The position numbers were made by a program, and so were the translations under genes. Shown piece after piece: positions 20,254 through 60,020 of a stretch of 64,000 bases of DNA (within the stretch, counting starts at the first letter, position 1; every line of letters begins with the position of its first letter). The stretch comes from Candidatus Cloacimonadales bacterium (lineage in GTDB: Bacteria; Cloacimonadota; Cloacimonadia; Cloacimonadales; JAIOQZ01), in assembly GCA_963662655.2 (NCBI GenBank), contig CAXXTU010000002.1, positions 32,001-96,000 on the forward strand, written 5' to 3'. The notes below the pieces were generated by a model, which saw only the letters and a program-made list of their open reading frames with translations, was not told the DNA's origin and ran no database searches.

Positions 20254-20391
20254 GTTTGCTCTGGGGCACCTTCGCCCGATCCGCTTTTCAACGTGGATAT
20301 ACCACACCCTTACAAATTGGGTGAAGTAATGAGGTAAGGGTGTGAAACACCACGCCGAAAAGCGGATCGAACGAATCTGCCTCCGGCGAAC
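20254..20391 (-). repeat. Long imperfect hairpin element, family B copy 1
   Basis: Inverted arms TTCGCCCGATCCGCTTTTCAACGTGG...CACACCCTTAC / GTAAGGGTGTG...CCACGCCGAAAAGCGGATCGAACGAA; aligns end to end with the reverse complement of 57995-58128. Confidence 0.85.
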
Positions 20392-20434
20392 GAGGTTGAA
20401 GACCGTGTAACTGCAAGAAGAGAGGGATATCGCA

Positions 20435-23004: not shown

Positions 23005-23158
23005 TCCTTCGACTCCGCTCAGGATGACACTAAAGCAGGCTCAGGATGACACTAAAGCAGGCTAAGGATGACACAAGGGTAGACCCAGGATGTCACTAAG
23101 CTTGGCTCAGGATGCCAAGCAGTATATGCTCCATTCCACTCTCTGTCATTCTGAGCGA
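23005..23158. repeat. REP-like repeat with a tandem array of five 22-bp units and an inverted partial copy
   Basis: TCCTTCGACTCCGCTCAGGATGACA at 23005-23029; unit GCTCAGGATGACACTAAAGCAG exact at 23017 and 23039, degenerate at 23061, 23083, 23105; TGTCATTCTGAGCG near 23144. Confidence 0.85.
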
Positions 23159-27160: not shown

Positions 27161-27275
27161 TCAATGCACGATAATTGACATGTACACCAATGGGCTCAGT
27201 AAGATATCCTGCTTTGTTCTGAAAACAAGTATGATCGGGGTGTCAATCGGTTGTTTCCCAAATAGTTGTCCGCTG

Positions 27276-27300
27276 TGTCATCCTGAGCGGAGTCGAAGGA
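27276..27300 (+). repeat. REP-like 25-nt repeat
   Basis: TGTCATCCTGAGCGGAGTCGAAGGA, exact reverse complement of 23005-23029. Confidence 0.85.
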
Positions 27301-54467: not shown

Positions 54468-57400
54468 ATGAAGAAAACCCCCATCCTGCTGCTTCTAATC
54501 GTAGTATCCGGGCTGCTGTTCGCGGCTCCAGCTCTCGATATCGTCGAGAGTGCAGGAACTGTTCAGGTAAGTTGCAGCTATCAGCAGGAAGAAAGCGTAA
54601 ACCGCTTTGCGCAGCAAACGTTTGCCATTCCGGCTCAAAGCGTCTCGGTTGAAATCCAGTCCATGCGGATTGGACTCTACAATGCGGAAGGCGAACGAGT
54701 TAATCAATATGAACAAATCCAGCCTGAGCGTGTTGCTGTCGCCAAGCAGTTCACGCTGAGAGAAATGCGCGGTTTTACCGTGCGTATTGAAACTTCACGG
54801 GACGAAAACGGTCTTGAAAGTCGCATCGACGACCTGGAATATTCTCTGATATCCAACGGGACATTTACGTATCCTCAGAACGTATCCGAGGCTTATGTCC
54901 CCATTTACAAACAGATGGCAGCGAACTACGAAACCTCGTATCTTCGCCACATGTCGTATCAAAGACCGTCCATGCTTATCATCAGTCACTCGACGATAAC
55001 GCCGAGTATCCAGAACTTCGTGACCTGGAAGAGGTCATTAGGATTTGAAGTTACCATCGAAGACATCGAGAATATCTCCACCAACGCGAACGATATTCGC
55101 GCCTGGATTGCGGATTTCTATAACAACGCCGAGAACCGCCCGGAGTACCTGATCGTGATCGGCGATGTTGTCGGGAGCCTTAGTTGCCCGACTTTCTACA
55201 CTTCTTTGGACAACAATGTTACTGACTTACCTTATACGTTGATCGAGGGAGACGATTTCCTTCCCGAGATGATCGTTGGCCGTGTTTCGATCAATGTTCT
55301 CGATCATGCGCTCAGCATATTTTCGAAGACCATCAAGTATGAAAGAACGCCCTACATGGCCGATACCGCGTGGTTCAACAGAGCGCTGGTTGTCGCCGGT
55401 AACTACGGCCAGCCAATCGTGCCCGTTACACCGGTTTTGATGTCGAAATGGCTCCGGGATCAATTTGTGAATCATGGGTACACGACCGTCGATACGTTGT
55501 TCTACCCGCCGGTTTCGAACGGCGCGCCTTATATAACCCCAATCCTCAACGCTGGCGCTCAGTTTGTCAGTTATCGCGGATGGGGAGCCGAGAACGGCTG
55601 GCATTATCCCCGGTACCACTCGGATGACCTTGCATCGGTAACAAGCGGCGAGAAGATGCACGTTGTATCTTCTGTTGTTTGCGGAACGGGGGACTTCGGC
55701 GACACGGTTGACGGAAACGCATGCTTCGGCGAGCAATGGATGCGCATGGGTTCCGCAAGCGCTCCCAATGGAGCCGTGGCGTTCTTCGGCCCTTCGTATC
55801 TGCACACAAGTACGGAACCGAACAACGCGGTTTCTTCCGGATTCTATCAGGGTGTCTTGGAAGAGGGGATCCATTCCTTCGGAACTGCGGTTCTTCGCGG
55901 AAAAACAGAACTTTACAACAACTATCCCAACGATAACGAGCAGGGTGGGGTAACGGAATTCTACTACCATATCTACAACATTCTGTCTGATCCTTCTCTC
56001 AAAATGTGGAAGCAGGTTCCAGATACGCCGACGGCCGTTCTGCCTGCCCAGATCGAGAAGGGAACAAACTATCTCTCGCTCGATCTATCGGGATGGAACG
56101 GCGGGATCGTTACCGCATCGCGCGACATGGTGAACTTCTCCTTCGCTCGCGTGGATGCAGGTCACGCATTCCTGAACATCGACACGAGCGAGACGGGAAA
56201 TCTTCTGGTGACGATCTCTCGCGAGAATGCCGTGCCGGTTTACCAGTCAATTCCGATTGTTGCTTCCGACAATGTGGGTATCGTGGAGCATACGCTCAGC
56301 AACGTGTACTCGGGTATGACCGCCGGGCTCTCCATCACGGTTCAGAACTTCAACGATGCGGCGGTTAGCGATCTTACCGCCACGCTTACGTCCGATTCAC
56401 CGTATTTCATCAGCACGGACGATGTATGGAACTTTGGCTCGATTGCTGCTGGCGGAACAGCTACAGCGAACGGCACATTCGATATTTCTGTGGAATGTCC
56501 GTTCCATGAATTCATCGAGCTCACGGCTGAATTCTCCAATGGGGACGTGTCCAAGCTTGTCGCAGTAGCGGGTGCTTTGCTGTTTGAAGTCACGGCTTGC
56601 ACGCCAACCGGCGACGGTTTCCTCTCACCGGGAGAGACAACGGATATCACCATTCAGCTTACCAATATCAGTTCTTACGACGCCGTAGGCGTTACCGCGA
56701 ATGTCGTTTCTTCGACAGACGCAGTGACAGTGAACAGCGCCGAGATTACGTTTGGCGACATCGCTTCCGGCTCTACGGGTACCGCGACTCTCAACGTCGA
56801 GGCCGGCTCGAACGCATTTCTCGGCAGAAGCGTTCGTTTCCTCCTGAACATCGAGGATGAAGACGGTCGTGAGACGTACAACTACGCATATACGGAGATC
56901 GGCCCGGTCGATCAGTCGGCGCCCACGGGTCCCGACGCGTACGGGTATTACGCATACGACAACAACGATACCGGATATGACGTTCCTGCTCCAGTATACG
57001 AGTGGCACACGATCGATCCGAACGAAGGTGGCAACGGTACGGTGTTCCTCTGGACAGACGACGCCTCTGAAACCGTCGATCTTCCCTTCACATTCCGTTT
57101 CTACGGTCAGGACTTCGATGAAGTGACGATCTGCTCGAACGGATGGCTCTCCATGGGGAGAACCTGGATGGCGAATTTCCGTAACTGGAACATCCCCGCG
57201 GCGCTTGGTCCCGCAAACCTGATCGCCCCGTACTGGGACGACCTCAAGGGATTGGTTGTTGACGACGAACGCACCGTTAACGACATGCGAATCGTTTATT
57301 ACTACGATGAGGGCGCTAACGAGTTCATCGTTCAGTGGAACGACGCGTACAACCAGGAAAACAATACCTCGATCGAAAAGTTCGAGGTCGTTTTGATCCC

Positions 57401-57917
57401 GCGCGTAGATCACGACGGCGATATCGTTTTCAATTACCAGACGGTTGACAACCCGGATATCGATAGCAATTACAGTACTGTGGGTATTGAGAGCAATCAT
57501 CATGATTCTGGCGTTTGCTATTCATACGCAAATATCTATCCCGCAACCGCGTCGACGCTTGCGAACGGACTGGCAATCAAGTTCACTACGGACGCGCCCG
57601 ATGAGTACACTTCGGTCGATGACGGTACCGTCGCATACAGCGATGTCGTTCTTCAACAGAACTACCCGAATCCGTTCAATCCTGTGACGACCATCGAGTT
57701 CGCTCTGCCGAACGAGATGGATGTTGCGCTAGAAGTATACAATGTACGTGGTCAGAAAGTGAAAACCCTTGTGGCTCAGTACATGGAATCCGGAAAGCAC
57801 GAAGTTACGTGGTTCGGAAAAGACGACAATAACCGCGACGTCAGTTCAGGCTTGTATTTCTACAAGCTCACAACTGGCGACAAGGTGAATGTCAGGAAGA
57901 TGCTTCTTCTAAAATAA
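54468..57917 (+). CDS. Secreted gingipain-family (C25) protein with C-terminal T9SS/FlgD-Ig-type domain; catalytic His position is Trp
   Basis: YLIVIGD, TDLPY, PEMIVGR, SYRGWG, VVCGTGDF, NILSDPS; GPDAYGYY; NYPNPFNP...RKMLLLK. Confidence 0.88.
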   Translation: MKKTPILLLLIVVSGLLFAAPALDIVESAGTVQVSCSYQQEESVNRFAQQTFAIPAQSVSVEIQSMRIGLYNAEGERVNQYEQIQPERVAVAKQFTLREMRGFTVRIETSRDENGLESRIDDLEYSLISNGTFTYPQNVSEAYVPIYKQMAANYETSYLRHMSYQRPSMLIISHSTITPSIQNFVTWKRSLGFEVTIEDIENISTNANDIRAWIADFYNNAENRPEYLIVIGDVVGSLSCPTFYTSLDNNVTDLPYTLIEGDDFLPEMIVGRVSINVLDHALSIFSKTIKYERTPYMADTAWFNRALVVAGNYGQPIVPVTPVLMSKWLRDQFVNHGYTTVDTLFYPPVSNGAPYITPILNAGAQFVSYRGWGAENGWHYPRYHSDDLASVTSGEKMHVVSSVVCGTGDFGDTVDGNACFGEQWMRMGSASAPNGAVAFFGPSYLHTSTEPNNAVSSGFYQGVLEEGIHSFGTAVLRGKTELYNNYPNDNEQGGVTEFYYHIYNILSDPSLKMWKQVPDTPTAVLPAQIEKGTNYLSLDLSGWNGGIVTASRDMVNFSFARVDAGHAFLNIDTSETGNLLVTISRENAVPVYQSIPIVASDNVGIVEHTLSNVYSGMTAGLSITVQNFNDAAVSDLTATLTSDSPYFISTDDVWNFGSIAAGGTATANGTFDISVECPFHEFIELTAEFSNGDVSKLVAVAGALLFEVTACTPTGDGFLSPGETTDITIQLTNISSYDAVGVTANVVSSTDAVTVNSAEITFGDIASGSTGTATLNVEAGSNAFLGRSVRFLLNIEDEDGRETYNYAYTEIGPVDQSAPTGPDAYGYYAYDNNDTGYDVPAPVYEWHTIDPNEGGNGTVFLWTDDASETVDLPFTFRFYGQDFDEVTICSNGWLSMGRTWMANFRNWNIPAALGPANLIAPYWDDLKGLVVDDERTVNDMRIVYYYDEGANEFIVQWNDAYNQENNTSIEKFEVVLIPRVDHDGDIVFNYQTVDNPDIDSNYSTVGIESNHHDSGVCYSYANIYPATASTLANGLAIKFTTDAPDEYTSVDDGTVAYSDVVLQQNYPNPFNPVTTIEFALPNEMDVALEVYNVRGQKVKTLVAQYMESGKHEVTWFGKDDNNRDVSSGLYFYKLTTGDKVNVRKMLLLK

Positions 57918-57941: not shown

Positions 57942-57972
57942 AAAGGGAGTCCGAAGCCGGACTCCCTTTTTT
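57942..57972 (+). terminator. Intrinsic terminator of the secreted-protein operon
   Basis: AAAGGGAGTCCG-AAGC-CGGACTCCCTTTTTT. Confidence 0.9.
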
Positions 57973-57994: not shown

Positions 57995-58128
57995 ACCGCG
58001 AGGTGTGAGTAGATTTGTTCGAAATGCTTTCCAGCGTGGTGTTACACATCCTTTTTCAAGGCTCGATAGTCAGGAGGATGTGTTATATCCACGCTGGAAA
58101 GCATTTCGGGCGAAGATGCCACACCGGT
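57995..58128 (+). repeat. Long imperfect hairpin element, family B copy 2
   Basis: TTGTTCGAAATGCTTTCCAGCGTGG..ACACATCCT / AGGATGTGT..CCACGCTGGAAAGCATTTCGGGCGA. Confidence 0.85.
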
Positions 58129-58374
58129 AAGCAAACATGAAAAGCATCCGATGAGCATTCCTTCTGGCAGCCGGTGCACCTTCGCTCCATCCGCCGCTTC
58201 ACCCTATAACAACACACCTTCGTCACATTTTTCTCAATTTCAATTGAGAAAAATGTGACTTCGGAGTGTATATAATAGGGTTACGCGGGGATGAAACGAA
58301 TCTGCTACCGGCGGGTGTGATGATTTTGGGAAGTATCGCTTGACGTGAAAGCGGGTGTATAAAAAAGTGCGAAA

Positions 58375-58551
58375 GATTACGGTTCGTCTTAGCGACGCCA
58401 AGATGGAATCCCCGTGAAATTCGGGAGCAGCCCCCGCTCCTGTGAGAAGTAACGAAAGCTCTACGAATGTCACTGACCGAAGGTTGGGAAGGCAGAGCGA
58501 GTAGGCAACCCGAGAGGGTGAAAGCTTCGAGCCAGGAAACATGCCGCAATC
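58375..58551 (+). promoter_or_regulatory. Cobalamin riboswitch
   Basis: GGAATCCCCGTGAAATTCGGGAGCAGCCCCCGCTCCTGTGA, GTCACTG...GGGAAGGC, B12 box GAGCCAGGAAACATGCC; downstream RBS-sequestering hairpin CCTCCTC-ATT-GAGGAGG (58624-58640). Confidence 0.93.
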
Positions 58552-58644
58552 AATATCCAATCACTTTCGGAGGGAGAGCAAGGTTGGAAAATGCACGCGT
58601 ATTGTGGCATTTCCCTTACGAACCCTCCTCATTGAGGAGGAAAG

Positions 58645-59922
58645 ATGAAGAATCTCACCATTTTGTTTTTACTGCTTGTAATGCAGTTTGCAGCGCTATC
58701 GGCATACGATTTCTACGTCGTCAATTCCGAGAGCCAGGTCATGTCGGTAGTCAATTCGGAAAACGGTACCATCGATCCCGATTTCGCAATGCTGGGCGCA
58801 GACGCGTATGCGGCGCCCAATCGCATGGAAATTCTGGATGGGAAAGCGTATGTTACAATAACATACGAAAACACGCTTCAGGTCATCGATCTAGACAATG
58901 ATCGAGATCGAACTTCGATTTATCTGGGCGACAACGTGCTTCCCTACGACGTTTGCGCAGGCAACGGATACCTTTGGATTACGGGTAGCGCGAGCGAAAA
59001 GCTCTATCAAATCGATCCCGCAGACAACGAAATTACGGGAACCGTCGATGTAGGCATCTATCCGCAAAGCGTTCTGTATCGCGGAGGCATACTGTACGTA
59101 TCCAACAGCGGATACACGCCATCCGATATGAGCTACGCCCCCGGTACGGTTACCGTGATCGATGCGCAGACATGCGCGGTTCTTGCAACTATCGATACGG
59201 ACCTGAATCCACAGGATATCGCTGCTTACAACGGTCTTCTACACCTGACCTGCACGGGTGACTATTTCAACAACCCCGGCGTGATCGATATCATCGATCC
59301 CAATACGTACGAGGTGGTTGATGTGCTGGAGATTGGCGGCAGCCCGGGCTCGATCGTCGCCTCGGCAGATGGCAGGATGTACGTGGGCAACGCATGGCCT
59401 GCGGGAGTGTACGTGTATGACGCGACAAGCCTCAATGTCCTGATCACTCCAGACGATGGGATTTTTCTCGGCGGCAACGCTCTGGATATCTTCGGGACGG
59501 AACTCCTGTCCGTCGATGGCGGCGACTACATCCAGAATTCGGACGTCTATCGCTACAATCTGAGCAATCAATCGCTCATCGCATCCTACGAAGTAGCCGT
59601 GGGGGCGACAGACGTGCTGATCGATCCTTCGCAGCAGTCCGTTGACGACGGCGCGATGAATCCGGTCGCTGAGATATCTCTGCGAGTATTCCCCAACCCC
59701 GCGCGCATGGGCAGCCAGATACGTTTCTCCATGCCGGAAGGAATTTCAGTAGATAACTACTTGATCTACGATGTGAAGGGACGCCAGATTGCGAAGATCA
59801 AAGGCGGCAGTTGGGACGGTAACGACAGCCGCGGTAAGGCCGTCGGTTCTGGCGTTTACTTCTGTGTCAGCGCTTCGGGGAACAAGCGACTTGCCGTTAC
59901 GAAAATGACCATCGTTCGGTAA
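58645..59922 (+). CDS. Secreted YncE/BtuG-like beta-propeller protein with degenerate C-terminal T9SS-type domain; probable cobalamin-binding protein
   Basis: Signal peptide; repeated V.VID / P..I......YV blades; VFPNP...IYDVKGRQI...WDGND..G..VGSGVYF; preceded by the B12 riboswitch. Confidence 0.8.
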   Translation: MKNLTILFLLLVMQFAALSAYDFYVVNSESQVMSVVNSENGTIDPDFAMLGADAYAAPNRMEILDGKAYVTITYENTLQVIDLDNDRDRTSIYLGDNVLPYDVCAGNGYLWITGSASEKLYQIDPADNEITGTVDVGIYPQSVLYRGGILYVSNSGYTPSDMSYAPGTVTVIDAQTCAVLATIDTDLNPQDIAAYNGLLHLTCTGDYFNNPGVIDIIDPNTYEVVDVLEIGGSPGSIVASADGRMYVGNAWPAGVYVYDATSLNVLITPDDGIFLGGNALDIFGTELLSVDGGDYIQNSDVYRYNLSNQSLIASYEVAVGATDVLIDPSQQSVDDGAMNPVAEISLRVFPNPARMGSQIRFSMPEGISVDNYLIYDVKGRQIAKIKGGSWDGNDSRGKAVGSGVYFCVSASGNKRLAVTKMTIVR

Positions 59923-59992
59923 TAAAACTGTTGCAAATCTGGTGGGTAGGCAGCTTCGAAGTATGGAATTATTTACTTTGGATATTGCGTTA

Positions 59993-60020
59993 TGTCACCC
60001 TGAGCGGAGTCGAAGGGTGA
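59993..60020 (+). repeat. REP-like repeat
   Basis: TGTCACCCTGAGCGGAGTCGAAGGGTGA, two substitutions relative to 27276-27300. Confidence 0.85.

Follow-up and report, generated by a model that had tools for sequence, protein, structure and literature searches.

Introduction

Folded single-stranded DNA (ssDNA) elements have so far been represented by attC arrays accompanied by IntI, and by short REP sequences or IS200 ends located beside a transposase. The attC sites are characterized by the core motifs RYYYAAC and GTTRRRY. The orientation of such elements relative to replication has also been described. Passages of PMC5371416 report that attC bottom strands share one orientation in 25 of 30 sedentary integrons, which limits excision, and parts of PMC4125073 describe the cleavage by SbcCD of hairpins on the lagging-strand template. 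The lagging-strand template is favoured by IS200-type elements, and IS91 and ISL3 show the opposite direction, according to sections of PMC3971601.

We analysed a window of 64,000 nt from Candidatus Cloacimonadales bacterium (JAIOQZ01), corresponding to positions 32,001-96,000 of the forward strand of contig CAXXTU010000002.1 in the assembly GCA_963662655.2. Coordinates given without a contig name refer to this window. The genome under study is designated G000, and its genus was covered by four genomes (G000, G001, G002, and G003). An earlier note had pointed out a hairpin element in this window, referred to here as Family B, and had proposed that its conserved imperfections are determinants recognized by a ssDNA-acting enzyme or an RNA-binding protein.

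Results

Fold and surroundings of the studied copy

The covariance model detected three Family B copies in the window, at 57997-58131 (+), 20254-20392 (-), and 58164-58317 (-). The first of these is the studied copy (130 bits), and its core, bounded by the two arms of the basal stem, spans 58002-58125 with the plus strand as the folding strand. The DNA fold of this copy had an energy of -39.4 kcal/mol (z -7.8), and the RNA fold of the plus strand was -82.5 (z -11.4), while the opposite strand folded worse as RNA (-59.3). The G-T wobbles and the perfect helix described in the earlier note were both confirmed, as tandem T·G at 58018-58019/58109-58110 and a variable stem of 20 bp, perfect in this copy, formed by 58020-58039 and 58089-58108. 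The minimum-free-energy structure also drew the bulged T and the T·T mismatch that had been noticed, with TGTT (58040-58043) facing TATAT (58084-58088) in a T-rich internal loop, the 3' side of which contains the bulged T. The two sides together make up a pseudo-symmetric GTG-N6/7-CAC module. An inner stem (58044-58052/58075-58083) and a variable terminal part fill 58044-58083. The core as originally described was thus real, but its length had been set too short, as the element runs outward through the tandem G·A (58012-58013/58115-58116), a 3-bp stem, and a bulged A (58008) to a variable 6-bp basal stem in which 58002-58007 pairs with 58120-58125. On the 5' arm, the basal stem with the bulge occupies 58002-58008, followed at 58009-58019 by the 3-bp stem, the tandem G·A, a 4-bp stem, and the tandem T·G. 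The 3' tail (58126-58140) is weakly conserved, and many copies have a C/T-rich tract 25-45 nt out.

The same irregularities had been claimed for a first copy on the minus strand, and they were indeed present in the copy at 20254-20392 (107 bits), which lies just behind the stop codon of lptD, with lptD on the other strand. The third copy, at 58164-58317 (z -9.8; 67 bits), is divergent with the sides of its inner loop swapped. As it is located on the minus strand between the studied copy and the riboswitch, it forms a tail-to-tail doublet with the studied copy. The element had been placed between a terminator and a B12 riboswitch leader. Both flanks were found, but the second Family B copy intervenes before the riboswitch. 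The upstream flank is a terminator-like hairpin (57942-57969; scored on the minus strand, with a T run following on the plus strand) preceded by a C25 peptidase gene (54468-57917), and the downstream flank is a cobalamin riboswitch at 58363-58562 (+, 96 bits) ahead of the gene for a beta-propeller protein (58645-59922). The position next to the riboswitch looks incidental, because it belongs to a set of about 130 sites whose spread is like that of random intergenic gaps. The beta-propeller protein encoded behind the riboswitch (58363-59922 for the two together) is secreted, shows weak matches to DUF5074 and to a T9SS tail, and is likely a B12-binding surface protein. The window also contains another repeat, Family A, at 23005-23117, 27271-27300, and 59988-60019 (also locus L008).

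Size and distribution of the family

The search of G000 with an iterated profile identified 146 Family B places at E ≤ 0.001, 136 of them near full length, and the combination of two models gave 144 places at E ≤ 1e-4. The family in this genome thus amounts to about 140 dispersed intergenic copies, and none was contained in a predicted gene of our own gene calls. The other three genomes of the genus had no fewer than 33, 33, and 59 separate places, counted after the scoring of 150 candidates per genome and the merging of reverse-strand duplicates. Outside the genus, no match was detected in 41 genomes searched, nor in 151 genomes in each of which 21 candidates were scored. An exact pattern run against 185,579 species genomes matched only Ca. 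Cloacimonadales records (13 loci). Viral contigs, plasmids, and phages gave no match by exact pattern or BLAST, searches by which remote relatives would be missed, and 17 pattern matches in metagenomes were rejected as not being the Family B element. A published description was not found at the level of titles and abstract openings in a mainly open-access literature. Family B is apparently an undescribed repeat of one genus.

Conserved defects in a covarying stem

Anchoring at four motifs succeeded for 114 of the 146 places, and the remaining 32, which were partial, deleted, or atypical, were excluded. Read from the foot, the 6-bp stem and the bulge are followed by 3 bp, G·A, 4 bp, T·G, and a variable stem, after which come the T-rich loop, the inner stem, and a terminal part that varies. 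The basal stem was free in sequence and covarying, with Watson-Crick pairs in 83-104 of the 114 copies depending on the pair. The bulged base near the foot was A in 100 of the 114, and the basal pairing collapsed when the bulge was disallowed. The two positions of the tandem G·A were kept in 94 and 96 of the anchored copies, and those of the tandem T·G in 101 and 102. Covariation was examined with 47 aligned copies, namely 40 from G000 chosen for diversity and seven from relatives. It was found that 92.5% of the stem cells were paired and that double changes occurred in 37 of 42 pairs. None of 500 shuffles reached the observed level, and slid controls paired at 36-46%. The perfect helix seen in the studied copy corresponds to a variable part in the family as a whole, as a GNA/GNA 3×3 loop interrupts it in 46 of the 114 copies.

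The inner loop was parsed in 190 of 208 copies (18 were not parsed; the parser required Ts). The plain commonest form, TGTT opposite TATAT, accounted for 119 of the 190, and at least 35 had a symmetric 4×4 loop without the extra base, some with the sides swapped. The TGTT side was on the right arm in 24 copies. A single extrahelical T as the determinant was therefore not supported, and the steady bulge of the family is the A near the foot. Since the bulged T is only one loop form among 4×4 and swapped forms, what is conserved is the loop module itself, in which an open, T-rich loop is bordered by GTG and CAC on each arm with two-fold pseudo-symmetry. Column by column, the positions of the A bulge, G·A, and T·G were constant, whereas the form of the T-rich loop varied. 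The view of the earlier note that the imperfections are conserved thus holds for strand-specific defects at fixed places in stems that covary, but not for the bulged T.

The terminal part measured 3 nt in the short variants and exceeded 200 nt at the other extreme, and can carry another repeat as cargo. At least 23 Family B copies had the Family C repeat inserted there. Family C is a repeat of ~80 nt with GNA-triloop hairpins that also occurs in free tandem arrays (G000:C2:606541-606890, 772293-772615, 1736780-1737040, and others), and no partner gene was seen for it. Sharp ends of the Family B element were not found, and flanking direct repeats showed no excess over shuffled pairing that would indicate target duplication.

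Filled and empty sites and changes of the interior

Comparison of syntenic gaps holding a copy in a relative showed that six of ten were empty in G000, and at one site the copy belonged to a different subtype and faced the other way. The mean identity among 82 short copies was 0.62, and the nearest neighbour was in the own genome for 78 of the 82 own copies (median identity 0.80). Changes of the interior were also observed. Exactly the interior between two GTG repeats was lost in three copies, a deletion that simple slippage of replication at a hairpin could explain, and the interior type differed within the same outer frame in two of 12 orthologous pairs. In the six of the 12 pairs that were examined further, the element was 0.83-0.96 identical, and the four-fold sites of the genes beside it 0.43-0.83. 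As same-subtype paralogues are already about 0.8 alike, an identity of 0.83 can come from replacement.

Family B might be an old family of inert relic palindromes, the arms of which are kept complementary by template switching and the orientation of which is set only by the loss of lagging-template folders. Two copies in which the left arm had been rewritten as the perfect complement of the right arm agreed with this explanation, as did the ragged ends, the low identity among copies, and the lack of an enzyme. Template switching, however, would erase the G·A, the T·G, the bulge, and the loop, which persisted in 94-102 of the 114 copies. The orthologous copies moreover outlast synonymous sites, and G003 had near-identical copies at different, unrelated sites, pointing to recent spread. 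We consider inert relics quite improbable.

Of 55 gaps with a copy, 45 were synteny breaks, as were 52 of the 87 gaps lacking one (p 0.009, a value that overstates the significance because the copies are related; nor are the genomes independent). Orientation-preserving block shuffling was not seen (50 of 88 blocks kept their orientation; p 0.29). Joints across copies in DNA contigs are most readily explained by further copies of the repeat, and none of the sequencing runs listed for the sequence was of RNA. Heavy local rearrangement was seen between G001 and G000, in which the distance from the origin was kept (Spearman 0.69) and the block orientation was not.

Orientation relative to replication and genes

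By GC skew, replication of G000 starts at about 2.768 Mb and ends at about 0.809 Mb, with dnaA at 2.766 Mb. The folding strand was the leading-strand template, i.e. had the sequence of the nascent lagging strand, in 105 of 141 main-contig copies (105 of 139 in a recount). In convergent gaps, where the gene direction cancels, it was on the leading template in 44 of 60. The proportion in G000 dropped to 92 of 141 when local third-position skew was used in place of global replichores. In G001, a single contig, the folding strand was the template of the leading strand for 32 of 33 copies, with the terminus assumed opposite dnaA (skew samples broadly agree, and are mixed near 1.5-2.1 and 3.6-3.8 Mb). 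One contig of G003 gave nine of 12. Leading and lagging copies did not differ in score.

With respect to genes, 114 of the 146 copies lay antisense behind a gene end, and 62 copies were in convergent and 10 in divergent gaps. All eight doublets were tail-to-tail. The solo units of Family A were oriented opposite to Family B, being on the lagging-strand template in a ratio of 17:4 with nine mixed clusters set aside. A small GIY-YIG gene at C2:885 kb also has the Family A repeat on its flanks. Family C gave 24:25 with a loose pattern that includes false matches. The polarity of Family B could stem from insertion rather than survival.

A domesticated replication signal is an alternative explanation, consistent with the near-complete bias in G001, with the six well-conserved orthologous pairs, and with the lack of a detected mobiliser. 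GNA mini-hairpins occur in primase/polymerase start sites such as ssiA, and the ssi priming signals of the RSF1010 ssiA/RepB' type described in parts of PMC13037366 resemble Family B as ssDNA hairpins with a C(GAA)G loop. Family B differs from these signals in having about 140 chromosomal copies with filled and empty sites, and a RepB'-type primase was not found in nine genomes, a search in which the control was silent too. Its restriction to one genus, the opposite orientation within doublets, and the reversal of a quarter of the G000 copies also argue against a signal of this kind. The spacing of copies was not more even than random (CV 1.07 vs 0.97), and the identity of the orthologous pairs at the lower end may reflect the replacement mentioned above. 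A replication signal therefore seemed unlikely.

ssDNA rather than RNA as the probable substrate

Among 70 copies from relatives, 22 short ones ended in C(GAA)G, two in C(AAA)G, and one in T(GAA)A. A larger triloop count of 53 vs 4 was inflated by the separate repeat carried in the terminal loop. GNA triloop mini-hairpins are very stable in DNA, with a much lower stability for a related RNA hairpin (reported in sections of PMC13037366). The mismatches in the stems, counted in related copies against 3034 Watson-Crick pairs, were 78 G·T vs 43 A·C, 55 G·A vs 21 C·T, and 39 G·G vs 11 C·C. The tolerance of G·G and G·A matches the stability order in DNA. With either parameter set, it was the same strand that gave the better fold (108 and 113 of 114 copies), and the energies did not separate DNA from RNA.

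We considered a multi-copy structured RNA, either a non-coding RNA or a transcript-end element, bound by an RNA-binding protein. The very stable RNA fold of one strand is in line with this explanation, RNA too frequently contains G·U wobbles, tandem G·A, and 3×3 loops of purines, and a gene points into the 5' side in 84 of the 146 copies. If transcribed, however, the folding strand would mostly be head-on to replication (105 of 141) and antisense to its neighbours, as observed in 52 of 74 co-directional gaps, and the bias persisted at 44:16 in convergent gaps. No upstream motif was shared among copies, no sigma-70-like site was found at the studied locus, and no Rfam family matched at the gathering score. 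The C(GAA)G terminal triloops and the swappable loop sides are further points against RNA, which we regard as improbable. The replication polarity and the DNA-type triloops favour ssDNA over RNA, and the substrate of Family B is likely ssDNA. In addition, the retention of shape despite changes of letters and the mostly one-way facing suggested that the element likely acts as folded ssDNA. Of the two partners proposed in the earlier note, the evidence thus leans to a ssDNA-acting enzyme, although no partner of the IntI or TnpA type was found.

Search for a partner enzyme

Genes for IS110, resolvase, and DUF559 proteins were not found in G000, nor was a Y1 transposase. A Y2 transposase was also absent from G000, the search giving one weak match. 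The IntI model TIGR02249 exceeded its cut-off in none of nine genomes, with the controls also below the cut-off, and the two chromosomal tyrosine recombinases of G000 scored best as XerC and XerD. The single reverse transcriptase match in G000 was broken, and none was present in G001. PF13366 gave no match, a scan of our own gene calls for the HUH motif yielded nothing convincing, and a dif site was looked for and not located. An IS200/IS605 or IS91 HUH transposase with matching ends was found neither in the genome nor in the genus.

The loci fetched from relatives for Y1, reverse transcriptase, DUF559, GIY-YIG, IS110, resolvase, and integrase contained no Family B copy. Fifteen of 20 Y1 matches in relatives were fetched, and none carried a copy. 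Within the genus, IS110 occurred only in G002 and resolvase only in G001. Several candidate links were rejected. A copy follows xerD in G000, but none of 25 integrase loci of relatives held one; copies flank a terS-terL-portal operon in G000, but not in G001 or G003; and three of 13 ISL3-like elements lie within 52 nt of a copy, but have their own ends and A/T-rich targets. The flanks read for Y1, DUF559, and small GIY-YIG genes carried other repeats with no Family B match, and no copy lay beside any reverse transcriptase. No enzyme gene tested was consistently flanked by Family B copies.

Several other features were observed in these searches. The terS-terL-portal operon (G000:C2:1733634-1736683; L133:11634-14683) is solitary with no other phage genes nearby, and its terL is 82-83% identical in G001 and G003 and 55-58% in G006 and G011; it is a conserved packaging module that may be domesticated. 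The DUF559 genes of relatives, and several of their Y1 genes, are each surrounded by short hairpin repeats of their own (L272-L278; L085-L098). G000 has about four near-identical prophage copies, Mu-like by eye (C1:11-20 kb; C2:0.4-10, 476-506, 2730-2758, and 3290-3322 kb), and 13 ISL3-like and eight IS3-like insertion sequences. An ORF of 1,100-1,300 aa for a reverse transcriptase resembling the eukaryotic non-LTR type (L080, G004:C2) is probably contamination of the G004 assembly.

Discussion

Family B resembles attC sites in the conservation of structure over sequence, in the presence of an extrahelical base and an open central loop, and in a variable terminal structure from 3 nt, although the positions of these features differ. 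It also lies antisense behind gene ends with the folding strand on the leading template, as described for sedentary integrons in passages of PMC5371416. In contrast to attC, however, Family B lacked the RYYYAAC/GTTRRRY cores on either strand (0 of 114 copies), had neither a cassette array nor IntI, was dispersed among housekeeping operons, and had an inner loop that can swap between arms. The likeness to REP, REPIN, and BIME sequences, as far as these are described in parts of PMC3733652 and PMC6006769, includes lineage specificity, high copy number, intergenic location, enrichment in convergent gaps, and inverted heterodimer doublets. Yet Family B is about 125 nt long compared with the hairpin of 20-65 nt of REP, and the GCA of the GCAG at its foot pairs with TGC and covaries, leaving no unpaired GTAG/GGAG guide. 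It also differs from the RAYT system in that no REPtron was found, the Y1 genes of relatives carrying other repeats and G000 having none. The IS200/IS605 elements, as portrayed in sections of PMC3971601, likewise have a strand-specific imperfect hairpin, no target duplication, and a replication-linked orientation. The polarity of Family B is nevertheless opposite to the use of the lagging-strand template by the IS200 type, and Family B is one long self-paired hairpin instead of two end hairpins, with no TnpA in G000. A MITE of a DDE transposon was rejected, as there was no target-site duplication and the 13 ISL3-like copies possess ends of a different kind. By the features tested, Family B belongs to neither attC nor REP. 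By analogy, it may work as the folded-ssDNA recognition sites of attC or REP type do.

On balance, and with confidence only slightly better than even, we favour the reading that Family B is an orphan attC-like folded-ssDNA repeat that spread in trans and was retained where its folding strand stays double-stranded. A strand-transfer enzyme acting in trans, which we infer, would copy the folded ssDNA to new gene ends, and a protein would read the shape over the sequence as IntI reads attC. The bulged A, G·A, and T·G might constitute the outer recognition module, and the inner module might comprise the pseudo-symmetric GTG-N6/7-CAC on both arms, the open T-rich loop, and the variable terminal cap. 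Crossovers at the inner module would give the deleted, swapped, and exchanged interiors. Survival would be best where the folding strand is both the leading-strand template and the transcribed strand, as in this protected orientation the folding strand would rarely be single-stranded and may escape excision or hairpin cleavage. The likeliest candidate partner is a HUH or tyrosine-type enzyme, unlinked or lost. Several observations stand against this reading: no partner enzyme was found among the families tested, there were neither sharp ends nor target duplication, the polarity was 75% in G000, and orthologous copies were more conserved than synonymous sites, beyond the need of a purely selfish passenger.

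The interior deletions and swaps at GTG/CAC, the constraint on resident copies, and the synteny breaks hint at a further possibility, namely that Family B is an equivalent of attC on a genome-wide scale and without an integrase. Some 140 structure-encoded ssDNA recombination sites behind operon ends, with the leading template as a safety catch, would then allow a host or unrecognised recombinase to exchange interiors and reshuffle operons. We hold this to be distinctly unlikely.

Family B combines an anatomy and orientation like those of attC with a dispersed distribution, and none of the enzyme classes tested is linked to it. A second repeat family of this genome faces the opposite way. The about 250 diverse natural variants across the four genomes map which defects matter. 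On this basis, the family can readily be used to probe for a new structure-specific DNA enzyme and to test if the replication polarity of hairpin repeats arises by insertion or by survival.
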